IMG/VR virus record: IMGVR_UViG_2703719349_000005
Strand: one strand, 5' to 3'
DNA length: 37,134 nucleotides
Origin: a virus
Taxonomy: Duplodnaviria; Heunggongvirae; Uroviricota; Caudoviricetes
Positions within the stretch are counted from its first letter, which is position 1. The number at the start of each line of letters is the position of its first letter. The translations under genes and the position numbers were made by a program. The notes under the pieces were generated by a model, which saw nothing but the letters and a program-made list of their open reading frames with translations, had not been told where the DNA came from and searched no databases. This document shows positions 4,777 to 36,200 of this stretch, piece by piece.

Positions 4777-5603
4777 AAGAAATGCACCACGGAATTCATC
4801 ATTTCCATGGGACGCCTGTCTGGGGAAGTGCTGGCGACGTTCATCGTATTGCGGTGAGCGGAGCTGGTGCTTTCGTCTCCTATGTACGACCAGATCAGAT
4901 TGCGGCGTCCATTCAGCACGCTCAGGTCGTTGGCATTGATAACGGCGCATTTTCTGCATGGGGGCGTGGGCTAAAAATTAACTGGAGTGATTTTTATAAA
5001 TGGCTCCTGAACTATTACCACCATCCTAAGGTCGCTTTTTTTGTCATTCCTGATGTTGTGGACGGAGGTGAACGTGACAATGATGCCCTGATAAACGAAG
5101 TTCCGAAAATGTTCTACGGGAAGGCAACTCCCGTCTGGCATCTGCACGAGTCAATCGATCGGCTTATCGAGTTATGTCGTGAATGGCCTCGTGTCTGCTT
5201 TGGATCGTCTGGTGAATATGCGGCTATTAGAACTGCGCACTGGCATCGTCGTATGCAGGACGCTTTTGAAGCAATTTATTGCCGACACAATTTCAAAACA
5301 GCTGTTCATGGTTTGCGCATGCTTGACGGTCGTGTGTTGGGAAATTACCCACTGGCGACTGCCGACAGTACAAATCTTGCCTGCAATGTCCCCAAATTTA
5401 ATAGCAAATATCCTGAGCTTACGCGGGCTATTCAGGAGGCTGAGTATTCGCGCAATCTGACGGAAAAGGAGCTGAAAGCTGTCATTCTGAAAAACCGTTG
5501 CGCAATTTTAAAAGGTGCAATTGAAGCTGTTCGCCCACCTTCAGTTTCTGACTGGCTGTCGAATGGTTTGCAGCCTTCACAGCTCGAACTGGAGATTGCG
5601 TAA
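4773..5603 (+). CDS. Conserved phage protein, possibly TGT-fold / DpdA-like (DNA 7-deazaguanine transglycosylase-like)
   Basis: 276-aa ORF overlapping the dam stop (GTGTGA; GTG at 4773 or ATG at 4782). Weak resemblance to tRNA-guanine transglycosylase motifs: [10 protein letters not shown] (cf. DSGGFQ), [15 protein letters not shown]. No C-terminal zinc motif. The family call is tentative. Confidence 0.4.
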
Positions 5604-7975
5604 TGAACTACAGCTATTCCTGGAATGCTGAGAAAAAAGCAATCAATCCTTACGTAGAGACAGAAGAGCAATCTTCAGTTTCTGCGCTTTCAAACCTGAT
5701 CGCTCTGTACGCTGCCGATAACGAGCAGGAACACCTGCGCCGCGAGGTACTGAGTGATCAGGTCTGGGAGCGTTATTTCTTTAATGAATCCCGTGATCCT
5801 GTCCAGCGCGAAATGGAGCAGGATAAGCTCATTAGTCGGGCAAAGCTGGCGCATGAGCAGCAGCGTTTTAATCCAGATATGGTCATTCTGGCGGACGTCA
5901 ATGCCCAGCCTTCCCATATCAGCAAGCCGCTGATGCAACGTATTGAATACTTCAGCAGCCTTGGCAGGCCAAAGGCTTATTCCCGCTATTTGCGTGAGAC
6001 GATTAAGCCATGTCTGGAACGGCTGGAGCATGTACGCGACAGTCAGCTATCCACTTCTTTTCGCTTTATGGCAAGCCATGAAGGGCTGGACGGCCTGCTG
6101 ATTCTGCCTGAAATGAGTCAGGATCAGGTGAAACGCCTGTCCACCCTGGTAGCTGCGCATATGAGTATGTGCCTTGATGTAGCTTGTGGTGATTTGTATG
6201 CCACCGATGATGTTAAGCCAGAAGAAATCCGCAAGACATGGGAAAAGGTGGCTGCAGAAACCCTGCGACTGGATGTCATACCGCCTGCGTTTGAGCAACT
6301 CCGCCGGAAAAGAAACCGCCGCAAACCTGTGCCTTATGAACTCATCCCGGGTTCGCTGGCGCGTATGCTGTGCGCCGACTGGTGGTATCGGAAATTATGG
6401 AAGATGCGTTGCGAATGGCGGGAAGAGCAGTTGCGTGCTGTCTGCCTGGTCAGCAAAAAAGCATCTCCCTATGTCAGCTATGAAGCCGTGATGCATAAAC
6501 GTGAGCAGCGCCGTAAGTCGCTGGAGTTTTTCCGTTCTCATGAACTGGTGAACGAAGACGGCGACACGCTGAACATGGAGGATGTGGTAAACGCCAGCAG
6601 CAGCAACCCGGCGCATCGCCGCAACGAGATGATGGCCTGTGTTAAAGGCCTGGAGCTTATCGCGGAAATGCGTGGTGACTGCGCCGTTTTCTACACCATC
6701 ACCTGTCCGTCACGTTTCCATTCCACGCTAAATAACGGCAGGCCAAACCCGACCTGGACCAACGCGACAGTAAGACAAAGCAGTGATTATTTGGTCGGCA
6801 TGTTTGCTGCATTTCGTAAGGCGATGCACAAAGCCGGATTGCGCTGGTATGGCGTGCGGGTGGCTGAGCCGCATCATGACGGTACAGTTCACTGGCACCT
6901 GTTGTGTTTTATGCGCAAAAAAGACCGCCGCGCCATCACTGCATTACTGCGTAAGTTTGCCATTCGTGAAGACCGCGAGGAGCTGGGTAATAACACGGGA
7001 CCACGCTTTAAGTCTGAGCTGATAAACCCGCGCAAAGGTACGCCAACAAGCTACATCGCGAAATACATCAGTAAGAACATTGACGGGCGTGGTCTGGCTG
7101 GTGAGATCAGCAAGGAAACGGGTAAATCCCTGCGTGATAACGCTGAATACGTTAATGCCTGGGCGTCTCTGCATCGTGTTCAGCAATTCCGCTTCTTTGG
7201 TATTCCGGGGCGTCAGGCTTACCGTGAACTGCGATTGCTGGCTGGTCAGGCGGCAAGGCAGCAGGGGGACAAAAAAGCAGGTGCGCCGGTACTGGATAAC
7301 CCACGCCTTGATGCCATCCTGGCTGCTGCTGATGCTGGCTGTTTTGCCACCTACATCATGAAGCAGGGCGGCGTGCTGGTTCCCCGCAAATATCACCTTA
7401 TCAGAACAGCTTATGAAATTAACGAAGAGCCGACCGCCTATGGCGATCACGGTATTCGTATTTATGGCATCTGGTCACCCATTGCAGAGGGTAAGATCTG
7501 CACTCATGCAGTGAAGTGGAAAATGGTTCGTAAAGCCGTTGACGTTCAGGAGGCGGCAGCCGACCAGGGCGCTTGCGCCCCTTGGACTCGTGGCAATAAC
7601 TGTCCCCTTGCTGAAAATTTGAACCAACATGAGAAAGATGAATCAGCAGATGGGGATACCAGAACGGACATTACCTGCATGGATGACAAGGAATTGCACG
7701 ATTACCTGCACAGTATGAGCAAAAAAGAGCGCCGGGAACTGGCAGCAAGATTGCGCCTGGTTAAACCGAAACGGCGTAAAGACTACAAACAGCGAATTAC
7801 AGAGTATCAGCGTCAGCAGCTCGTCTATGAACTGAAGTCCAGAGGATTTGATGGCAGCGAGAAAGAGGTCGATTTGCTCCTTTGCGGTGGCAGTATTCCG
7901 TCAGGAGCAGGCCTGCGTATCTTCTATCGGAACCAGCGTTTGCAGGAAGATGATAAGTGGCGGAACCTGTATTAA
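5603..7975 (+). CDS. A: Replication initiation protein A (rolling-circle nickase)
   Basis: 790-aa ORF at the P2 gene A position, with HxH-type metal motif ([10 protein letters not shown]) and a tyrosine region ([11 protein letters not shown]) typical of gpA. Confidence 0.88.
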
Positions 7976-8384: not shown

Positions 8385-8684
8385 TTAGTTGTTACCCAAA
8401 GAGCCGGCCATGGCTGCATATTTAATTTCTTCGCTGGGTATTTCAGGATGTAGTTGAATTTGCCTGATGATATAGCCAGGAACTTCTTCACTCCACAGTT
8501 TCGCCGCGTCCTTACAGACCTTATACGCGAAGTCTCTATTCTCAAAGGCATAGGATTTTCCGTATGCATATTGCTGACAGGCATGAACATAAGCTCCGAA
8601 GTCGCCGTCTTTATCTGGCAAAGCACATCCAGCTAAGGCTATGATGATTGCTACTAACGTAAAGGAGAAAGTTATACGTTTCAT
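8385..8684 (-). CDS. Small lipoprotein (99 aa), unknown function
   Basis: Signal peptide with lipobox (MKRITFSFTLVAIIIALAGC). Confidence 0.6.
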   Translation of the reverse strand: MKRITFSFTLVAIIIALAGCALPDKDGDFGAYVHACQQYAYGKSYAFENRDFAYKVCKDAAKLWSEEVPGYIIRQIQLHPEIPSEEIKYAAMAGSLGNN

Positions 8685-8792
8685 GGTCTCTTTCTAAGCG
8701 TTTAGCATTATTTAACTAAGGGGTATCTGCCGTGATTTGGTAGTCCCTGATATATATTCTCAGGGACTATGCTGAAGTAGCTTTAATTTTGA

Positions 8793-9600
8793 TTATTTAG
8801 AAAGGTACTTATCTCTAAGTTGATTCAGTCTGTCAGCATCGCGTTCTGAAAACTCGGCGTCACCATAGATCGATTTCCCATCTGCGTCTTCAAGGCCAAT
8901 GACTGTGACGGTAAATATAGCATCAGCCGGAACTTTAAGTTTTCCCCAATCAGAGTATCTATTAGGGGCTAATTTCCAGTTGGCTTTCTCACCTGGTTCC
9001 AGACCTCCAGAAATTTTATAGTTGAAGACGTCAGAGAACCAAGGGACGCTTCTTCCTGGGCTGGCAATAACTCCTTTGAAGAATACTCTGGCAACCGCTT
9101 TGTCTGTTCCGTTTTCAACGCTAATATCCAGAATTGGCTGATCATTGCCGTAATCCTCTTTCTGGAAATAAAAACGGGAACGTTCGACCTTGAAGGCTTT
9201 CATTTTTTCCGCAGCCTGTGTTGCAGAGGTTTGTTTGGCTTCCAGTTCTTTTATTTCTTGCAGAGCCTGTTCTTTCTCTCTCTTCTCACGCTCAAGGCGA
9301 ATAGTTTGTGCGTAATTTATAACCTCATCACCAGTTTTACCTTCCAACGCTGACTTAATTTTTGTTTCGTAGACGTCCCCAGAAGACGTTCCAGCCTGCA
9401 TTAGCTCTCTCATGTTGATTTGGCTAAAGGCAACGACTTTAACTGCATCATCAAACTGAGCTTTTTTATCTGCAGGTAAGGACTCTCTTACTTTTTGAAT
9501 GGACTCTTTCATCGACTGATCGCTTGATGCATCGATCTTCGGTTTGTCACAAGCAGTAAGCAGCAGAGCAAAAGCAATTACGCCAGTTAATTTCTTCATA
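8793..9600 (-). CDS. Lipoprotein with central coiled-coil (269 aa), unknown function
   Basis: Likely start is ATG at 9600 (MKKLTGVIAFALLLTACDKP, lipobox LTAC). Central EREKREKEQALQEIKELEAKQ coiled-coil and a beta-rich C-terminal half. The six-frame ORF extends to 9671 but the lipobox start is preferred. Confidence 0.6.
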
Positions 9601-10128
9601 TCCCTATCCCAATCGTAAAAAAACAAGGCTAATCCTAACAGGATTAGCGGGCATGACAAACTCATAGCCATATAGGTGTGCTGTATAAATTAGCGGGATG
9701 AGAAAGCCTGCACAGACCCTCATGTTGAAACTTGATTTTAGCTCAAAAGAGCTGACACTAAATAACTGCGCGGAATAATGCTCCACTTTCGGTTAGCCCT
9801 TGGCCCTTGGCCCTTGCTGGGTAAGGCGTGGGGCCGTTTTCTTCGCCTGATCCTGCTGTATCTGGCCTACAGTAGGTTGTCCTTACGCGACATGCCACAT
9901 GTCAGTAAACGGCAGGTGTAGCAGTATTAGACGCAGCTATTTAGTGTGTATTAAGCTGGCTCATATTTATGACTGGTTTCAAGGTTTGACCGATTTTCAT
10001 GTCATGCATGTCTATGCTGCATGAGTTCGCATGATCGTTTGAGGATCGGTTTGGCTAAGACATGCCAGAACTGGCGGGCTTTTGCTCATGTCATGCAGGT
10101 GCATGAAAACTACTACATAAAGCGGGCA

Positions 10129-10147
10129 GGCGTGGCGGGGATACGAG
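10129..10147. other. Candidate cos (cohesive-end) site
   Basis: GGCGTGGCGGGGATACGAG shares its first 13 nt with the recalled 186 cohesive end (GGCGTGGCGGGGAAAGCAT; P2 GGCGAGGCGGGGAAAGCAC). Lies in a ~670-bp non-coding region at the expected map position between the A-side cargo and Q. Confidence 0.45.
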
Positions 10148-10273
10148 CGCGCGCTTAAGGATAAATTGAAGTTGATTTAATTTTTCGACATGGATAATCT
10201 TAACTACGTATGATTATTGATAAAAAATAAACATAAACAATTGTAGCGGATCTTAAAACTTATTAGGATTAGT

Positions 10274-11335
10274 ATGCTTAAAACAAATAAGGTATTTATT
10301 GACACACAAACGTACGTAAAGGCTGGTCTTCATTTTGAGGGGGTAGCATTTAAAGCTTTCCATGAATTATGTGCGAAAGGTGATTTAGTCTTAATTACAA
10401 CTACAGTTGTAGAGAGAGAAGTAAAAGGTAAAATAGAGGAATCAATAAAGGATGCTCTGCAGGCTATAAACACAGTACAAAGAAAAGCTAGGCTTTTGAA
10501 TAGTATTGATAATGGACCGCTCCATGATTTTTTTCAGCAATTTAACGAACATGAAATTCACGAAGCAGCACAAAAAGTTTTTGATGATTTTTTGAAAGGA
10601 TGTCACGCCAAATTAGCTACAATAGAAGTGATAGATCTTAATGAGGTTTTAGATAAATACTTTGGCAAAGAACCACCATTTGGGCAAAATAAGAAAAAAA
10701 GTGAGTTTCCTGATGCAATCACTTTAGCTGCGGTAGAGCGATTTGTTAATGATGAAGATGTGTATATCATTTCTGAGGATAGTGACTTAAAAAATTATTG
10801 TGATGGTAAAAACAATCTTCATCAAATTGATTCACTTGATAAGTTTCTAGGTGAATACAATACGCATACAAACGAATTAAGTAATAAATTGATGCAGTTT
10901 ATCGAAAGCAAACGTGAAGACATAAGAGCGGACGTAATTGCCCAACTCAATGATGCCGATGGATATAACGTTTCAACTTGGGAAGACGCTGAATTGGATT
11001 CATTTGAAGTCGTCAATATTGATGACTTTGAACCATCAATAATTAAGATTAACAATAATTATTGTCTAGCGACCTTCTCTGTTTCTGTAGATTTTGAAGT
11101 TACTGTTTCTGGTCCAGACTTTAATAATGGGTATTGGGATAGCGAAGATAAAGTAATGATTCCAATGGAGACAACCACACGAACTGAAGTTCAAGAGATT
11201 AGTTTCGATATTGAAATTGAAGTTATGTATGAAATCGAGGATGGTGAATTAACAGATATCGCATTTGATGTGAATATTGATAAGTTATCCCGAGGGATTG
11301 AGTTCTCTATTGAAGAAAATAATTTTGAATATTAA
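10274..11335 (+). CDS. PIN-like nuclease-domain protein with acidic C-terminal domain (353 aa); candidate defence / exclusion cargo
   Basis: N-terminal VFIDTQ (Asp in strand 1), VVEREV, SEFPDAITLAAV and ISEDSDL acidic motifs are consistent with a PIN fold. C-terminal ~180 aa is D/E-rich and beta-rich. Very AT-rich. Confidence 0.5.
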   Translation: MLKTNKVFIDTQTYVKAGLHFEGVAFKAFHELCAKGDLVLITTTVVEREVKGKIEESIKDALQAINTVQRKARLLNSIDNGPLHDFFQQFNEHEIHEAAQKVFDDFLKGCHAKLATIEVIDLNEVLDKYFGKEPPFGQNKKKSEFPDAITLAAVERFVNDEDVYIISEDSDLKNYCDGKNNLHQIDSLDKFLGEYNTHTNELSNKLMQFIESKREDIRADVIAQLNDADGYNVSTWEDAELDSFEVVNIDDFEPSIIKINNNYCLATFSVSVDFEVTVSGPDFNNGYWDSEDKVMIPMETTTRTEVQEISFDIEIEVMYEIEDGELTDIAFDVNIDKLSRGIEFSIEENNFEY

Positions 11336-11372
11336 TTCGTTCATAACGGCATCATTGTGATGCCGTTGGGTT

Positions 11373-12401
11373 TTATAATGTATATATTTCAAAATTTATA
11401 ATTTCATGACCAAGCCATCTGTTTATTTCCATGAATCTTTTTTGAAGTGGTAATAGTTCATTTCTTACGAAGATGCAGCTCGCCTTCTCCACATCACCAA
11501 AACCCCCAACATTATTCGGCAAAATTCCCATCATCTGAGGCGGTACGCGGTGTGCCGCCATCATGTCATCACGGCTGACGTTCTTGATGCTCAGAAATTC
11601 ATCCTTCGCCGCGACTTCTGACAACGGGATGATCTGAAGCCCGTCCTTTTTGCCGTTAGGCGAGTACATAAACAGGTTGCGGAAGTTGCCAGGGCCTTTG
11701 GCGCTTTTCATCGCATTGCGGAGGTTGTTCACATCCTCCTGGTTCTGCGCGGCATCGGTCATGTACATGATGAAGCCTGCATGGCTGCCGTTAATGTAAT
11801 ACTTCCGGCGGAACAGCGTGGCGGACTCGTTGAGCAGGGCTGACGGAATGGCAGAAAGATAACCTGGTAGGCCGTAGATCTCCTGGTTGATGTCAGGTTC
11901 CATCAGATGAAAAATGCTGCCTTTCGTGAACTGATACGGCTGGGTTGTCATACCGTATTGCACAAACCAGTAGGTATCCAGGTCTAACCCGCGTCGGGTG
12001 TATTTTGCCAGAGCAGGCTCAAGGGCGATAACTTCACCGAAGCGGTTCGTGCGTTTCTCCAGGTAGGCGTTACCAAATACCAGATAGTCCTGCACAAAAC
12101 GTGAAAAAGCCTGCTGGCTGAGCAGCGGGTGAGGGATGTAGGTACTGGTCAGAATGTTGCACTTTACTGCAATCGGAGAACTGTGATGCACGGCGGCGCG
12201 GAAGGTGCGCGCCAGTCCGTCAAAGCTGACGGGCGGCTCATACCAACGGTCCATCTGTACGCATTCCACATAGTCCAGCAGTTCACGGCGGTCCAGAACA
12301 GGAACGGGATCACCGAAGCTGAATGCTTCGGCTGAAGTCTGGCTTTTATGCTGGATCTGGTTCGTCGACGCAGCGCGGTTCTTCTTACTCTTTCCCATCA
12401 A
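11373..12401 (-). CDS. Q: Portal protein (gpQ)
   Basis: 342-aa ORF at the P2 Q position, upstream overlap with terminase gene P on the same strand. Confidence 0.88.
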   Translation of the reverse strand: MMGKSKKNRAASTNQIQHKSQTSAEAFSFGDPVPVLDRRELLDYVECVQMDRWYEPPVSFDGLARTFRAAVHHSSPIAVKCNILTSTYIPHPLLSQQAFSRFVQDYLVFGNAYLEKRTNRFGEVIALEPALAKYTRRGLDLDTYWFVQYGMTTQPYQFTKGSIFHLMEPDINQEIYGLPGYLSAIPSALLNESATLFRRKYYINGSHAGFIMYMTDAAQNQEDVNNLRNAMKSAKGPGNFRNLFMYSPNGKKDGLQIIPLSEVAAKDEFLSIKNVSRDDMMAAHRVPPQMMGILPNNVGGFGDVEKASCIFVRNELLPLQKRFMEINRWLGHEIINFEIYTL

Positions 12402-14164
12402 AAAATCTCCACAATATTACTGGTATTGGCGGACTCGCCCTGCAGTGGTTCGTTAAACAGTGCGTGCATTGTTGCCCAGGCCAGATCGGCGTGGCTGGCT
12501 TCTTCGCTGCGGCTGGCTTCATAGGTCGGGCGGTTGCCGCTGGCGGTGGTTGCGCGACGGATTGCCATGAATGACTGCGCAATGTCGGTGTGTCCGGCGT
12601 CAAACTCCAGACGGCGGTGGCTGATAATGTCGTAGGCCTTGAGTACCAGGGCGTTTTTAACGTTGGGGTTGTAGACAAACTCCCGGACGGCAGGAAAGAA
12701 CGCTTTCACGTTCTCATAAACCCCGTGACCGACACCTGTCGAGTCGATGCCGATATATGTCACGTTGTACTGTTCGGTCAGTTTTTTGATGGCGTCCGCC
12801 TGGGCGCGGAAGTCCATCCCGCGCCACTGGTGACGCTCAAGAATACGGAACTTACCGCCCGGCACGGCTGGCGGAGCCACCACCACGCATCCGGCACTGT
12901 CGCCGTTCTGCGTACCTTTTGCCGGGTCATAACCGATCCACACTTCGCGCCAGCCAAACGGGCGCAGCGCCAGTGCATGAAAGTCGGTCCAGACTTCCCA
13001 GCTGTCCACCATGCACGCCTGCAATTCGCTGAGCGGGAACACAGATGCGAGATCGTCAACGAACTCGCACATCAGCAGGTTCTGGTATTCGTCCGGGCTG
13101 TACTCCATGCGCAACTGGTCGAGGTCGAACAGGTTACAGCCGCCGCGTACCGCATCTTCCACGGTGACTATCTGGCGGTATTGCCCGTCTGCGCACAGCA
13201 GGCCGGGGGCCAGATTGCTGTGGGACAGGTCGATGTCCACCTTATCGGCTTTGTTGCGCCCACGGTTGAACAACGCGCCGGACCAGAACGGATAAGCACT
13301 GTGGGTCAGGCTGGATGGCGTGGAAAAATAGGTCTGTCGCCATTTCTTGTGAATAGCCATACCGGAAGCCACTTTGCGCAGCTCCTGAAATTTTGGTATC
13401 CAGAAATATTCATCCAGATACAGGTTGCCGTGATAACTCTGGGCCGTGCGGGCATTGGTGCCTAGGAAGTAAAGCGTGGCCCCGTTAGGAAGCACCATCG
13501 GATCGCCTTTCAGCTCCACCTCCACTTCTTTGGCGAAGTCGATGATGTACTGCTTAAAGACGTGGGCCTGTGCCTTACTGGCGGAAAGGAAAATCTGGTT
13601 ACGCCCGGTAAGCAGAGCGTCAATCAGGGCTTCACGGGCAAAGTAAAAGGTTGCGCCGATCTGGCGTGACTTCAGCAGGTTGCGGATGCGGTTGGTTTTT
13701 CCGGCTTCCCACCAGTGGCGCTGGTAGTTGAACATGGAGGAATGGAAGATTTCTTCCAGCTTCTCAATCTGTTCATCGGTGAAGACATTCTTTTCCGGCT
13801 GACGGCGTGGGCCTTTGTTGCGGTTGGCGACGTTAGGGTTTAAGTCGGCTTCGTTGCCGCCATTGTTAAACTTGCCGATCCGCGCGTGGCGTTCCGACTG
13901 GCGCGCCAGCAGGTCAATCTCTTTGAAATCTTTCCCTTCTTTGTGCTCCTTCATAATGAGCTGGCAGTAGCGTGCGGCGGTGGTGAGCTGCATCTGATCC
14001 AGCGGCCCATAGTCACCCCACTTGTCGCGTTTTTTCCAGCTGTGAACGGTTGCAACTTTCTCGCCCAGCATTTCAGCAATGCGGGCTACGCGGTATCCCT
14101 GAAAGTACAGCAGCATGGCCTGCCGACGGGGATCGAGATCTGCGGGTGTCAGTGTGGTGTTCAT
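12398..14164 (-). CDS. P: Terminase large (ATPase) subunit (gpP)
   Basis: 588-aa ORF matching P2 gpP in size, position and Q-P arrangement; starts divergently from O. Confidence 0.88.
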   Translation of the reverse strand: MNTTLTPADLDPRRQAMLLYFQGYRVARIAEMLGEKVATVHSWKKRDKWGDYGPLDQMQLTTAARYCQLIMKEHKEGKDFKEIDLLARQSERHARIGKFNNGGNEADLNPNVANRNKGPRRQPEKNVFTDEQIEKLEEIFHSSMFNYQRHWWEAGKTNRIRNLLKSRQIGATFYFAREALIDALLTGRNQIFLSASKAQAHVFKQYIIDFAKEVEVELKGDPMVLPNGATLYFLGTNARTAQSYHGNLYLDEYFWIPKFQELRKVASGMAIHKKWRQTYFSTPSSLTHSAYPFWSGALFNRGRNKADKVDIDLSHSNLAPGLLCADGQYRQIVTVEDAVRGGCNLFDLDQLRMEYSPDEYQNLLMCEFVDDLASVFPLSELQACMVDSWEVWTDFHALALRPFGWREVWIGYDPAKGTQNGDSAGCVVVAPPAVPGGKFRILERHQWRGMDFRAQADAIKKLTEQYNVTYIGIDSTGVGHGVYENVKAFFPAVREFVYNPNVKNALVLKAYDIISHRRLEFDAGHTDIAQSFMAIRRATTASGNRPTYEASRSEEASHADLAWATMHALFNEPLQGESANTSNIVEIF

Positions 14165-19280: not shown

Positions 19281-19674
19281 AGCGGTGCCTTATGTCCGCA
19301 ATAACCCGGACAAACTGCATCTGTTTGTGGATAACGGTTCGCTGGTTGCCACGGGGGCCAGCTCCATGTCGTGGGAGTACCGTTACACCCTGAACGCGGT
19401 GATTGAGGATTTCAGCGGCGACCAGAATCTGCTGATGGCCCCGGTTTTGCTGTGGCTGAGGGATAACCAGCCCGATGCCATCAATAACCCGGCGTTACGG
19501 GAAAAGCTATTCACCTTTGAGGTGGATATTTTGCGCAACGATGTCTGTGATATCAGCCTTAACCTGCAACTGACGGAGCGTGTGCTGGTCAGCACTGACG
19601 GCAGTGTGTCGAGCGTTGAAGCGGTAGCGGAACCTGATGAACCTGAAGAAATGTGGACGGTGAAATGTGGCTGA
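19243..19674 (+). CDS. R: Tail completion protein (gpR)
   Basis: Likely GTG start at 19243 (VNKPQSLRHALNKAV...), which aligns with the recalled P2 gpR N-terminus (MLKPDSLRRAL...). Confidence 0.78.
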   Translation: MNKPQSLRHALNKAVPYVRNNPDKLHLFVDNGSLVATGASSMSWEYRYTLNAVIEDFSGDQNLLMAPVLLWLRDNQPDAINNPALREKLFTFEVDILRNDVCDISLNLQLTERVLVSTDGSVSSVEAVAEPDEPEEMWTVKCG

Positions 19675-20104
19675 ACTGCAGAAGGTGGATGAGTGGCTGG
19701 CGGCCTTGCTGGCGAATCTGGAGCCTGCCACACGCCAGCGTATGATGCGGGAACTGGCGCAGGAGTTGCGCCGCAATCAGCAGGAGAATATCAGGCTGCA
19801 GCTTAACCCTGATGGCAGCGGCTTTGAGCCGCGCCGGGTAGCAGCCCGCAGTAAGAAGGGGCGCATCAAACGCCAGATGTTCGCCAAATTGCGCACTAAT
19901 AAATACCTGAAAACTGCCGCCACAGCGGATTATGCCTGCGTGTATTTTGATGGAAAAGTCCAGCGCATCGCCTGTGTACACCACTATGGACTGCGTGACC
20001 GTGTTAGTCGAAGAGGTTTAAAAGTACAGTACCCTGAGAGAAGGCTTTTAGGATTTACTAAGGATATTAGTAACTTGAACTTGGGTGTTTACTTAAAACG
20101 CTAA
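19667..20104 (+). CDS. S: Tail completion protein (gpS)
   Basis: 145-aa ORF at the P2 S position; last ~20 codons become AT-rich (see findings). Confidence 0.8.
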   Translation: MAELQKVDEWLAALLANLEPATRQRMMRELAQELRRNQQENIRLQLNPDGSGFEPRRVAARSKKGRIKRQMFAKLRTNKYLKTAATADYACVYFDGKVQRIACVHHYGLRDRVSRRGLKVQYPERRLLGFTKDISNLNLGVYLKR

Positions 20105-20249: not shown

Positions 20250-22208
20250 ATGATAGTAGGGATTTTTTTAAGGTATTTTAAAACATACAACGGAAATCAT
20301 TACATACCGTTATCTTCTGGAAGTCAGTTTTGTGGAATTGTTGGTAACAATGGAATTGGCAAAAGTTCTGTTCTTGAGGCTTTAGATTCGTTTATTAATA
20401 ACAAACCATGGAATATTAATTCTTCATTTAAAAGAACCTCCAGTGACAGACCTTCTCCACATATTGTTCCTTTATATCTTATAAAGCGAGAGGAATTACA
20501 TGAAGATCATCATGCTAAAGCTGAAATCTTAACGCAATTAGTATTAGAATATAGCAATAGTAATGCTGATGTTACATTGACGCCAACAACACGAAATATA
20601 ATTAATACGTTTTTTGAACATATTAACAAATTAAAAAGAAATTTAAATCTCCAAGATTATTTTTTGATCCCTCTGGGTGTCGAGAAAGATGGTGATGTAA
20701 GTATTTCGATTCTTAATGGGAAGAGTTTATGTCGACTTTTGGAGGTTGATAATCCCGATAATAAAGTTTCGAGCGAGTTGCTTAGTGAGCACTTTGGGTA
20801 TTTATTACATCATGTCCGCCATAAGTATGAATATATATATATTCCAAAGGATATAGACTCTGAATCGTTTACGAAGCTAGAAACAAGTGAAGTACAAAAG
20901 TTGATGGGTGAGTCTTTAGAGCAGATAATTAAAGATAGAATATCTGATAGAACCATAAGTCAAATCAATACAGGGCTTGCCAAATTTCTGGATGGTGTTG
21001 AAGAGGAGCTTGAAGAATATGGTTATAGAACATCTGGCGAGAGACAATCGCGATTAAAAAAGAAAGATGTTTATAATTTGATTATCGAAGCATTCTTCAA
21101 GGTTAGGAAATTAAATAAAAAGCAGAATTCAGGTTGGATTGAAATTAGCTCGCTAAGTTCAGGGGAGAAGCAACGTGCAATAATGGATATTGCATATGGG
21201 TTTCTTACCAATCATCGAGAAAATGGCGATAATCTGATTATTGGAATTGATGAGCCAGAATGTTCTCTTCATATGTCTGCATGTTTTGAACAATTTGAAA
21301 AGCTCTATTCTATTAGTGGTATATGTGAACAATTAATATTTACTTCACATTGGTATGGCTATCTTCCAACCGTCGAAAATGGATGTACCACAACTATCCT
21401 TAAAACAGATTCAACTCATCATTTTGAATTATATGATCTTGCCAGTTATAGAGAAGAAGTCAGGAAGAAAGTAAAAACCTCTTCCCCGGGTATGCCATTT
21501 GATATAAAAATAAAAAGTGTAAATGACCTTATACAATCCATAATATCTAGCTGTTTGGCTGAGAAACCTTACAATTGGTTGATTTGTGAGGGTACTACAG
21601 AAAAAATATATCTTTCGCATTATCTAAAGGACTTGGTAGAAAATAAAAGGCTAAGGATTGTGCCTGTAGGGGGAGCTAGTGAAGTTAAAAAAATATTTAA
21701 GCATTTAGAAGCTTCTTATGAAGAGTTCAAAAAAGACCTCAAAGGAAAAGTGTTCTTACTAACCGATACAGATTCAGAGTTGGTGTCATATGATACCCCA
21801 GTTATGCCGCATGTTGTTTGTAAGCGAATTGTTAGTGTAGGTGATTCAGTGAAGTTGGTTGATATTTCTTCCAATCCAGTTTCTCCTGCAACAGAAATAG
21901 AGGATTGTCTTAATCCTGTATCGTTTATAGAGGCTTTAACATCATTTTCTTCACGTTTTCCTGAGCTTCAGGCATTGCTGCCTAATAGTAATGTTATGAT
22001 AGATGAAAGACATTCATCGTTTGCTGCGATGGATTTGTCACCCAAGAACAAAAAAACGCTTGATGCTTTTTTTGACCGTGAAGGGATTAAGTTTGATTTT
22101 TCAAAGGAATATATTTCAATCTGTGAGCGAAATGAGCGGAAAAGGCCAGAGTGGATTGCCAAAATTGAAAATTTTTTTATAAGTGATAAACCTGTAAAGT
22201 TTAATTGA
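20250..22208 (+). CDS. OLD/GajA-like ABC-type ATPase fused to Toprim-like nuclease domain (652 aa); candidate antiphage cargo
   Basis: Walker A GNNGIGKSS, ABC-signature-like LSSGEKQ, Walker B LIIGIDEPE, H-loop-like TSHW. C-terminal Toprim-like acidic motifs WLICEGTTEK, IVPVGG, FLLTDTDSE. Strongly AT-rich relative to flanking phage genes. Confidence 0.65.
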   Translation: MIVGIFLRYFKTYNGNHYIPLSSGSQFCGIVGNNGIGKSSVLEALDSFINNKPWNINSSFKRTSSDRPSPHIVPLYLIKREELHEDHHAKAEILTQLVLEYSNSNADVTLTPTTRNIINTFFEHINKLKRNLNLQDYFLIPLGVEKDGDVSISILNGKSLCRLLEVDNPDNKVSSELLSEHFGYLLHHVRHKYEYIYIPKDIDSESFTKLETSEVQKLMGESLEQIIKDRISDRTISQINTGLAKFLDGVEEELEEYGYRTSGERQSRLKKKDVYNLIIEAFFKVRKLNKKQNSGWIEISSLSSGEKQRAIMDIAYGFLTNHRENGDNLIIGIDEPECSLHMSACFEQFEKLYSISGICEQLIFTSHWYGYLPTVENGCTTTILKTDSTHHFELYDLASYREEVRKKVKTSSPGMPFDIKIKSVNDLIQSIISSCLAEKPYNWLICEGTTEKIYLSHYLKDLVENKRLRIVPVGGASEVKKIFKHLEASYEEFKKDLKGKVFLLTDTDSELVSYDTPVMPHVVCKRIVSVGDSVKLVDISSNPVSPATEIEDCLNPVSFIEALTSFSSRFPELQALLPNSNVMIDERHSSFAAMDLSPKNKKTLDAFFDREGIKFDFSKEYISICERNERKRPEWIAKIENFFISDKPVKFN

Positions 22209-22318: not shown

Positions 22319-22346
22319 AGAGGGTTTATTTCTTTTCAAAGAAAAT

Positions 22347-22364
22347 TGTATCTTCTTTTATACA
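22347..22364 (+). promoter_or_regulatory. Late-promoter activator dyad TGT-N12-ACA upstream of V
   Basis: TGTATCTTCTTTTATACA read directly, about 50 bp upstream of the V start. Confidence 0.5.
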
Positions 22365-22411
22365 AAATAAGCTGTTTGAAGAGGTTGTGTAAAGCATGGA
22401 AAAATAATCTT

Positions 22412-22990
22412 ATGAATACACAACTCACAGAAATCATGCGCCTTATCACCAACCTGATCCGCACAGGGGTAGTCACTGAAGTGGACAAGGAAAACTGGCT
22501 TTGTCGGGTGAAAACGGGCGACCTTGAAACCAACTGGATTAACTGGCTGACGCTGCGCGCGGGTAATGCCCGCACATGGTGGCGACCATCGGAAGGTGAG
22601 CAGGTGGTGCTGCTGAGTCTGGGAGGTAATCTGGAAACAGCCTTTGCGCTGCCCGCCATCTATTCGAATCAGTTCGCACCACCGTCGACGTCGGCAGATG
22701 CCTGCGTGATAGAACATCCTGACGGTGGCTGGTTTGAATACGAACCCGCCACTGGGCGCTGGTATGTCAGGGGCATCAAATCAATGGTCATTGAGGCCGC
22801 CGACAATATCACCCTGAAAACCAGTGAGTTTGTGCTGGAGGCTGACCGCACGCGTATTAACAGCGAAGTGGTGATCAATGGTGGCGTTACCCAGGGCGGC
22901 GGAGCGATGAGTTCTAACGGGATCGTGGTTGATGCGCATCAGCATACTGGCGTTCTGAAAGGCGGCGACACAACCGGAGGCCCGGTATGA
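22412..22990 (+). CDS. V: Baseplate spike / assembly protein (gpV)
   Basis: Start at ATG 22412 (MNTQLTEIMRLITNLIRTGVVTEVDKENWLCRV...), gpV-like. Confidence 0.85.
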   Translation: MNTQLTEIMRLITNLIRTGVVTEVDKENWLCRVKTGDLETNWINWLTLRAGNARTWWRPSEGEQVVLLSLGGNLETAFALPAIYSNQFAPPSTSADACVIEHPDGGWFEYEPATGRWYVRGIKSMVIEAADNITLKTSEFVLEADRTRINSEVVINGGVTQGGGAMSSNGIVVDAHQHTGVLKGGDTTGGPV

Positions 22991-34279: not shown

Positions 34280-34360
34280 CTCTGCCGCCAATTTGTCGCC
34301 ATCATTAAAAAACAGTGCGTCTAACATCATGATTTTAAACAGCTTAAATTTCAGGCAACA

Positions 34361-34413
34361 AAAAACCCATCAACCTTGAACCGAAATGGCGGGGTTGATG
34401 GGCTCCACAAAAT
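34361..34413 (-). terminator. Rho-independent terminator (minus strand) downstream of ybjL
   Basis: Inverted repeat CCCATCAACC...GGTTGATGGG followed on the minus strand by a T6 run. Confidence 0.55.
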
Positions 34414-34514
34414 GGGGACATCAAAGAAAAGCAGTGGCACTAATTAAGACTGATGCCCTGCGGAAAAGTTCTGCGGTTGTGCAAAAAAATTTCATTTTCA
34501 GGGCAACTTCAGTT

Positions 34515-36200
34515 TTATCCTAATCCTGGCCATACCATGACGATGATTGTCCCTGCCAGCGTCAGCAGGACGTTGGCGATTGCGTAGGTGCCCGCATAGC
34601 CCAGCGCAGGGATGTTACTGCGAGCTGTATCACTGATGATCTCCATTGCCGGCGCGCAGGTGCGTGCGCCCATCATTGCGCCGAACAACAGTGCGCGGTT
34701 CATTCGCAATACATAAGCACCGAACAAGAAACAGATAACCACGGGCACAAGACTGACAATTAATCCGGCAATCAACATCTGACCGCCAATCGCGCCCAGG
34801 CCGTTATTAATACCGCTACCGGCGCTCAGACCAACGCCTGCCATAAACACCATCAAGCCGAACTCTTTCACCATGCTTAATGCACCTTGCGGAATGTAAC
34901 CGAAGGTCGGGTGGTTAGCACGCATAAAGCCCAGCATAATTCCGGCGAATAACAACCCGGCAGCGTTCCCCATGCCGAAACTGAATGTGCTGAACTGGAA
35001 GGTGATCATCCCGATCATCAGCCCAATAACAAAGAAGGCGCAAAATGCCAGCAGGTCAGTGACCTGGCTGTGAATCGAGATAAAGCCGATGCGATCGGCG
35101 ATGGTTTTTACGCGACGGGCATCACCGCTGACTTGTAAAACGTCACCTTTGTTAAGCACGACGTTGTCATCTATCGGCATCTCAATCTGGCTACGAATGA
35201 CGCGGTTAAGGAAGCAACCGTGATCGGTCAACTTCAGTTGTGCGAGACGTTTACCTACAGCGTTATGGTTTTTAACGACCACTTCTTCAGTGACGATACG
35301 CATGTCGAGAAGGTCACGATCGAAAACTTCTTTACCGTTACGGAAGCTGGGATCGAGTCGGGCATGGGCGTCGGGATAGCCTACCAACGCTATTTCATCG
35401 CCCATTTGTAGCACGGCATCACCGTCTGGATTTGCCAGAATCCCGTTACGTCGAATACGTTCAATGTAGCAGCCGGTTTGTCGATAAATACCCAGTTCAC
35501 GCAGATTTTTGCCGTCGGTCCAGGCCACCAGCTCCGGGCCGACGCGATAGGCGCGGATCACCGGTAAATAAACCTTACGGTTGGCATCAGTGTCCAGGCC
35601 ACGTTCGCGGGCGATTTGCTGGGCGCTGGTCTGTAAGTCCTGATGCTGCAATTTCGGCAAGTAACGCGCACCAACAATCAAACTCACCAGACCGATTAAA
35701 TAGGTTAAGGCATACCCGAGGCTCAGATTATCCAGTGCCAGTGAGAGCTGCCTGCTTTCCATGCCGAAATGACGCAGTGTATCGCCAGCACCGACCAGAA
35801 CCGGTGTCGACGTCATAGAGCCTGCTAACATACCGGCCGTCAGGCCAATATCCCAGCCAAACAGCTTACCTAACCCTAAGGCGATCACCAGCGCACTGCC
35901 AACCATCACCAGTGCTAACATTAGGTAATTTTTCCCATCGCGAAAAAAAATGGAAAAAAAGTTCGGTCCGGCTTCGACCCCGACGCAGAAAATAAACAGC
36001 ATAAAGCCAAGATTAAGCGCATCGGTGTTAATGCTGAAATGTTGTTGGCCTAATAACAGCGATACGACTAAAACGCCAATGGAATTACCCAGTTGGATCG
36101 AACCAAGTCGTAACTTTCCGAGACATAGCCCAAGCGCGAGGACCACAAATAATAACAGAATGTAATTCCCATTTAACAATTCGGCGACGTTTATATTCAC
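34515..36200 (-). CDS. ybjL: Putative transport protein YbjL (AspT/YidE/YbjL family, two TrkA-C domains)
   Basis: 561-aa translation ([36 protein letters not shown]...) matches E. coli YbjL as I recall it. Confidence 0.88.

Follow-up and report, generated by a model that had tools for sequence, protein, structure and literature searches.

What does a P2-like prophage carry between its cohesive-end site (cos) and its portal gene, and on whose behalf would such a gene act? The stretch of DNA analyzed here (the window, 37,134 nt) contains a complete P2-like prophage, and the site in question is filled by a single gene coding for a protein of the PIN_12 (DUF4935) family (10274..11335, plus strand; ATG start, 353 aa plus stop; Pfam PF16289). 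Judged from its sequence and from its relatives, we consider this gene likely to be a self-contained, horizontally acquired piece of anti-phage cargo of the prophage. The prophage comprises the integrase (1-1110) and the CI repressor (1426-2001), both on the minus strand, the replication protein gpA (5603-7975, plus strand), the portal gene (11373-12401, minus strand; matching DNA is annotated as portal in related records) and the large terminase (12398-14164, minus strand), with the capsid and tail genes beyond. At the right end of the prophage, the host flank is recognized by a RybB sRNA (34357-34435, minus strand; Rfam RF00110, 105 bits) and by a permease gene of the Asp-Al_Ex/TrkA_C type (34515-36200, minus strand), and the prophage is thus integrated beside rybB.

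The left edge of the cargo module is formed by a conserved cos region (10005..10175), and in 78 Peduoviridae phage records this region of ~150-170 bp (window ~10005-10155/10175) is 86-92% conserved. Its 19-nt core, GGCGTGGCGGGGATACGAG (10129..10147, plus strand), is the equivalent of the cohesive end and was placed by alignment with bases 1-19 of P2 cosL; 14 of the 19 bases aligned alike with the annotated P2 site, and the core is identical to the putative cos of Escherichia phage Cartapus. The PIN_12 gene is placed between this core and the portal gene stop (11373), that is, on the Q-proximal side of cos, where the original prediction had put it on the strength of a candidate cos. The interval from cos to the Q stop measures 1225 nt in the window vs. 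168 nt in P2, in which the tQ terminator is its sole content. The GC content of the gene is 33.5%, compared with 50.7% for the portal gene and 50.1% for the window, which bears out the early impression of a very AT-rich module.

The gpA-gpQ region adjoining cos is a described defense hotspot of P2 (Rousset et al., 2022, PMC9122126; Vassallo et al., 2022, PMC9519451), and the PIN_12 gene shares with the old/tin cargo of this hotspot a cos-proximal locus between A and the portal gene Q, a patchy presence with variable occupancy of the site, a low and atypical GC content and the organization of an independent transcription unit. However, P2 itself carries old and tin on the A-proximal side of cos, whereas the PIN_12 gene of the window lies on the Q-proximal side, a side put to use by relatives of the Felsduovirus/Elveevirus type and not by P2; no mention of a PIN gene was found in the main text of either hotspot paper. 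The proposal that the conservation of this insertion site be compared across P2-like phages proved fruitful, as the cos-portal slot is filled by other cargo elsewhere, an Abi-type gene included: a retron (effector and reverse transcriptase) in Klebsiella phage 4LV2017, a Hypoth_Ymh gene in vB_EcoM-813R9, a DUF4145 gene in Cartapus, and large hypothetical genes in Fels-2 and ST11-OXA245phi3.1. Homologues of the window protein are likewise found beside the portal gene, in this slot of a Pantoea prophage and of a metagenomic P2-like phage. In addition, the slot of the Pantoea prophage (locus L007, 6073-9065) and that of a further locus (L010) hold, in this order, a ~197-198-aa ORF, an HTH_3 plus Peptidase_M78 gene and the PIN_12 gene, which in the Pantoea prophage is preceded by a terminator hairpin. 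The ~197-198-aa ORF and the HTH_3/Peptidase_M78 (ImmA/IrrE-like) gene may represent a separate uncharacterized system.

On the other side of cos, the window carries a second block of cargo (8385-9671, minus strand) with a 292-aa DUF6694 lipoprotein-family gene and a 99-aa ORF, and PADLOC returned no match for either of these gpA-side genes. The left cargo block together with cos is 100% identical to other E. coli genomes and prophages, and this identity stops at ~10155; the pairing of the DUF6694 block with the PIN gene seen in the window was found in 0 of 5,426 complete E. coli genomes. The end of the identity and the absence of this pairing argue that the two sides of cos are independently assorting cargo slots. 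In many P2 relatives, the Q-proximal side of cos is a separate cargo slot, which assorts independently of the old/tin side.

The 353-aa ORF that had been claimed for this module is real, and the range noted for it at the time (10150-11372) corresponds to the whole cargo module, from the right of cos to the portal stop. The sequence TCGACA-N18-TATGAT (10185..10214, plus strand), put forward as a promoter of the gene's own, is a candidate sigma-70 promoter with 10 of 12 matches, the best in the region, and is identical in E. coli 09-02E. The site is present as the original prediction gave it, and a role as the promoter of the PIN_12 gene is plausible from the sequence, while the region contains 7 promoter-like sites vs. 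6.2 +/- 2.8 in shuffles, i.e., no excess, and gives it no statistical support. A Shine-Dalgarno motif, AGGA (10265..10268, plus strand), can be read from the sequence 5 nt before the ATG. Downstream, a terminator scan identified an intrinsic terminator (11344..11378, plus strand) composed of a hairpin (11344-11368, 11-bp stem and 3-nt loop) followed by the T-run GGTTTTATAA. This terminator takes up the 37 nt that separate the PIN_12 gene from the convergent portal gene and occupies the position of the P2 tQ terminator, and since its T-run is on the plus strand, the hairpin is oriented to terminate the cargo gene. In P2, by contrast, the T-run of tQ, the terminator found at the equivalent position, is on the strand of the portal operon.

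No partner ORF was found next to the PIN_12 gene, as 126 nt of non-coding, AT-rich sequence separate the ATG from the cos core and only the 37-nt gap follows downstream, and an Rfam search found no known RNA close to the gene. From these sequence features, the PIN_12 module looks like a self-contained transcription unit. Similarly, in E. coli 09-02E the PIN_12 gene is the sole annotated gene between a DinI-like gene and the portal gene. The RefSeq copy of that strain (L001 8320-8325, vs. 11327-11335 in the window) is two residues shorter owing to E352stop and also carries D85G and N260D; the two genes differ by 3 nucleotides, all of them non-synonymous, which are too few for an inference of selection.

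The protein is composed of three parts. Its PIN nuclease domain (aa 7-171; 10292..10786, plus strand) scores 90.8 bits with Pfam PIN_12/DUF4935 (PF16289; cutoff, 32 bits; E=1.8e-25), the match extending over model positions 1-171 of 172, and this profile search affirmatively answers the question, raised at the outset, of whether a PIN fold is present. The window protein has the alpha/beta fold of PIN domains, with a helical insert behind strand 2, and VapC toxins come nearest to its PIN domain in fold. The acidic tetrad D10, E49, D147 and D169 is invariant in 37 aligned sequences from two subfamilies, and the EFPDA-type motif that includes D147 occurs in 131 of 137 representatives of the PIN_12 family. 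The three motifs pointed out originally, VFIDTQ (D10), VVEREV (E49) and ISEDSDL (D169), are present and fall on three of these four invariant acids; the fourth, D147 in EFPDA, had been missed.

The PIN domain is followed by a two-helix linker (~aa 186-228; 10829..10957, plus strand), which AlphaFold models as helices 188-212 and 214-227 with pLDDT >90, and by an acidic, beta-rich C-terminal domain with a cystatin/NTF2-like fold (aa 229-353; 10958..11332, plus strand). The description of this domain as extremely acidic was apt: residues 229-353 have a net charge of -27, 26% D+E and a pI of 4.05. Across 371 family members, the C-terminal 125 residues keep a mean net charge of -23 to -27, although their identity drops below 25%. 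Modeled alone, the domain reaches a pLDDT of 88.3, and its fold matches, with Z <=7.8, comprise a designed cystatin-fold protein, NTF2-like proteins, VirB8/TraM and the CaMKII hub. As these are generic cystatin/NTF2-like folds only, the fold says little about the role of the domain. A profile search of PDB sequences gave no match for the protein, C-terminal domain included, and PADLOC v2.0.0, NCBIfam and PHROGs gave no significant match for the 353-aa protein. DUF4935 had earlier been assigned to the VapC group of PIN domains, with an uncharacterized alpha/beta region behind the PIN part, and described as usually monocistronic (Matelska et al., 2017, PMC5499597). The window protein agrees with this description in its length (~350 aa described, 353 found), its uncharacterized C-terminal region and the absence of an adjacent co-oriented gene.

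Activity against phages has been validated for two members of the family, which provide the closest available comparison. [quoted passage not shown] Its sequence was taken from the DNA in Table S3 of the preprint, which was machine-read with frameshift errors, so that the readable frames were stitched and used to find the database protein; the intact Cosus recovered in this way is a 382-aa protein of Providencia stuartii (P0121), which is predicted to form a hexamer, and its matches include the authors' homologue from Marinobacter salexigens. BLASTP aligned the window protein with Cosus at 28% identity over 354 positions covering both domains (E=2e-18), and on this sequence evidence the former is a distant full-length homologue of the latter. 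Both belong to the same Pfam family and share the invariant D/E/D/D tetrad, the layout of PIN_12 domain, helical linker and acidic beta-rich C-terminus (net charge -29 in Cosus and -27 in the window protein), and the organization as a single gene without a partner on a mobile element. In contrast, they fall into separate subfamilies with ~22-24% identity in the multiple alignment, and in reciprocal query searches neither was among the matches listed for the other; Cosus is longer (382 aa vs. 353 aa) and is carried by an integron cassette with attC, whereas the window protein is carried in a prophage hotspot.

The published mutants of Cosus allow this comparison to be extended to single residues. 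Of 11 point mutants, D153A and D177A included, only T12A, D14A and D96A were named as weakening defense; these three lowered protection more than 10^5-fold and left ~100-fold (bioRxiv 10.1101/2024.07.02.601719). D14, D153 and D177 correspond to D10, D147 and D169 of the window protein, while T12 and D96 correspond to F8 and Q89, neither of them conserved in the window protein, and F8 is fixed in its subfamily. Because D153A and D177A were among the mutants and not named as weakening, a simple four-acid nuclease mechanism cannot be taken as established for Cosus either. A weak escaper of Cosus D14A had a change in the T7 tail protein gp12, from which the authors suggested a possible interference with DNA entry (bioRxiv 10.1101/2024.07.02.601719). 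Two further mutants, E42A and S57A, do not fall on E and S in P0121, which has K42 and I57, and the canonical second PIN acid there is E52; the mismatch may go back to wrong numbering or a misprint in the preprint, and it restricts how far one can say which catalytic residues were mutated.

The second validated member, DS-5, was described by DefensePredictor (Science 2026) and consists of the PIN_12 protein WP_021513009.1 (376 aa) and of WP_021513008.1 (166 aa), a DUF5830/AcrIF4-like protein; both proteins are required for defense, which was validated in E. coli and is lost in catalytic PIN mutants (PMC13092281). DS-5 resembles the window protein in its E. coli host and in a homologous PIN_12 domain, with 24% identity over ~200 aa (E=2e-7). 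However, this similarity is confined to the PIN domain, the C-terminal part of DS-5 is less acidic (-16), and DS-5 needs its partner gene, whereas the window is without any such gene: tblastn of the DS-5 partner against the window gave no match better than E=0.44. Since both domains align with Cosus and the PIN domain alone with DS-5, and since no partner is present, the window protein represents a separate single-gene branch that is nearer to Cosus than to DS-5. Another PIN protein of the same study, DS-3 (WP_022645725.1, 340 aa, PIN8), has a VapC-like PIN domain split between both ends and was set apart by this description as a different protein; for this single-gene PIN system, the DefensePredictor authors proposed the sensor/autoinhibitor logic that is considered below for the window protein (PMC13092281).

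The exact window protein is already present in public databases, in 55 E. coli contigs, and its cluster at 90% identity comprises 211 proteins of E. coli, Klebsiella and E. albertii, each of which bears the name PIN or DUF4935 domain-containing protein. Full-length homologues at 40-56% identity occur across Gammaproteobacteria, and a profile search collected 4,193 clusters at 50% identity, the best matches of which are nearly all two-domain proteins of ~350-390 aa. A reading of the gene as a pseudogene was rejected, given the intact ORF, the 211 near-identical copies and the full-length homologues. When 5,426 complete E. coli genomes were searched, 36 of the ~1250 with such a cos/portal flank had the PIN_12 gene beside the portal gene. 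Elsewhere, a Vibrio homologue adjoins Gabija (GajA/GajB-type genes), a homologue on a Salmonella conjugative element lies beside a Septu-like AAA_15/HNH pair, a P. aeruginosa homologue is near a relaxase, and Enterobacter phage ENT4 has a homologue in the gpS-gpV late-gene hotspot. The neighborhoods of PIN_12 homologues are typical of defense genes.

Family membership, fold, an intact catalytic tetrad, single-gene organization, location and these defense-type neighborhoods of homologues are established by the present analysis. The anti-phage reading is backed by analogy with the validated relatives Cosus/Brc24 (bioRxiv 10.1101/2024.07.02.601719) and DS-5 (PMC13092281), and only for these relatives is it known that they act against phages and that this activity depends on the first aspartate of the PIN domain. 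Counting against the anti-phage reading are the ~28% identity to Cosus, the lack of a PADLOC v2.0.0 model that matches the window protein and the fact that two of the three residues whose mutation weakens Cosus are unlike in the window protein. From this body of comparisons, we infer defense by the window protein itself, as well as its substrate, its trigger and its autoinhibition. The gene would be expressed from the prophage under its own promoter, and the nuclease would do no damage as long as the cell is uninfected, as is required of a protein that lacks an antitoxin and yet persists in many lineages. The absence of an antitoxin likewise makes it probable that the C-terminal domain, the candidate sensor or autoinhibitor, restrains the nuclease. 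When a competing phage infects, the PIN domain, a metal-dependent nuclease of the VapC type, would cut nucleic acid (RNA being the likeliest substrate, given the analogy with other PINs of this type) and thereby stop the development of the phage. The specific mechanism of a triggered RNase is proposed tentatively, as a possibility in which we place less than even confidence. It is rather unlikely, though conceivable, that the acidic C-terminal domain acts as a nucleic-acid mimic that at rest sits in the substrate groove of the PIN domain and upon infection is pulled off by a DNA- or RNA-binding protein of the phage, i.e., as a single-chain bait-and-release sensor that would make an immune effector of a VapC-type nuclease and dispense with an antitoxin.

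A different mechanism would leave the defensive role intact but dispense with the nuclease. The acidic domain would perhaps block the entry or early handling of phage DNA, with the PIN domain serving mainly for binding or structure. The gp12 change in the weak escaper of Cosus D14A, the protection held at high MOI and the lack of any reported loss of defense in D153A and D177A all point in this direction, as does the C-terminal charge of about -23 to -27 that is kept across 371 relatives despite the divergence of their sequences; by analogy, the gp12 escaper and the suggested effect on DNA entry fit poorly to a pure abortive-infection RNase model. Nevertheless, the invariance of the four PIN acids in both subfamilies argues for retained catalysis, the catalytic PIN mutations of DS-5 abolish defense, and inspection of the sequence and model of the window protein revealed no membrane segment or secretion signal, so that nothing was noticed that would place the protein at the site of entry. 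On balance, we regard non-catalytic defense as improbable, and the MOI, mutant and escaper data of Cosus are the reason for which it is kept as a live rival.

Two further explanations see the gene as something other than a defense of the host and are given lower weight than this one. In the virion DNA, the gene has its place at the left end, directly beside cos, and P2-type accessory genes can have phage-centered roles; the gene might therefore serve the phage that carries it, as a nuclease of lytic growth, an anti-defense factor or a factor directed only against the P4 satellite or related P2-like phages. This is unlikely in view of the homologues found outside phages, which lie beside Gabija, on conjugative elements and in integrons, and of the protection that Cosus alone gives E. 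coli against T7, an unrelated lytic phage. Moreover, the gene is dispensable for the phage, since most related prophages lack it. The resemblance of the PIN domain to VapC toxins, both in its nearest fold and in the assignment of DUF4935 to the VapC group (Matelska et al., 2017, PMC5499597), suggests instead an orphan toxin or addiction module that stabilizes the prophage and has no immune role, but this we consider very improbable. An orphan toxin that is constitutively toxic could not be maintained in 211 near-identical copies, and the protein, with its conserved second domain and its 353 residues, differs from the ~135-aa VapC and belongs to a family reported as monocistronic. A VapBC toxin-antitoxin system in the strict sense was rejected, as no antitoxin gene lies on either side and the type II toxin is a single-domain protein of ~130-140 aa; compared with VapC, the monocistronic window protein is 2.5 times larger, has an additional domain and shows a long helical insert behind its strand 2. 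The preferred reading is thus that of anti-phage cargo carried by the prophage.

Much of the background to this reading is already known, namely the hotspot, a domain family annotated in Pfam and RefSeq, and the two members validated as anti-phage. The computational checks suggested in the original prediction all came out in its favor, but as both the hotspot (PMC9122126, PMC9519451) and the defense role of the family had been published, the finding is less novel than that prediction assumed. What appears to be new, to a modest extent and as judged from sequence comparison, is a prophage-borne subfamily without a partner gene and with ~28% identity to Cosus. If the reading is correct, the window protein would represent a third, prophage-borne branch of PIN_12 defense proteins after Cosus and DS-5, within a family of more than 4,000 clusters at 50% identity. 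The gain for the mapping of E. coli immunity would be incremental, and no new question is opened by it.

The module beside cos is one of two AT-rich islands observed in the prophage. The second (20250-22208, plus strand; ~33-35% GC) sits between the tail genes gpS (19667-20104) and gpV (22346-22990) and consists of a single gene for a 652-aa OLD-family protein, with an AAA_15 ATPase and an OLD-like TOPRIM domain (PADLOC AriA, 8.5e-22; Old, 2.4e-11). Elsewhere, this S-V slot holds other cargo, for example the PIN_12 homologue of phage ENT4 (L002) and, in another locus (L009), a DUF6602 gene.
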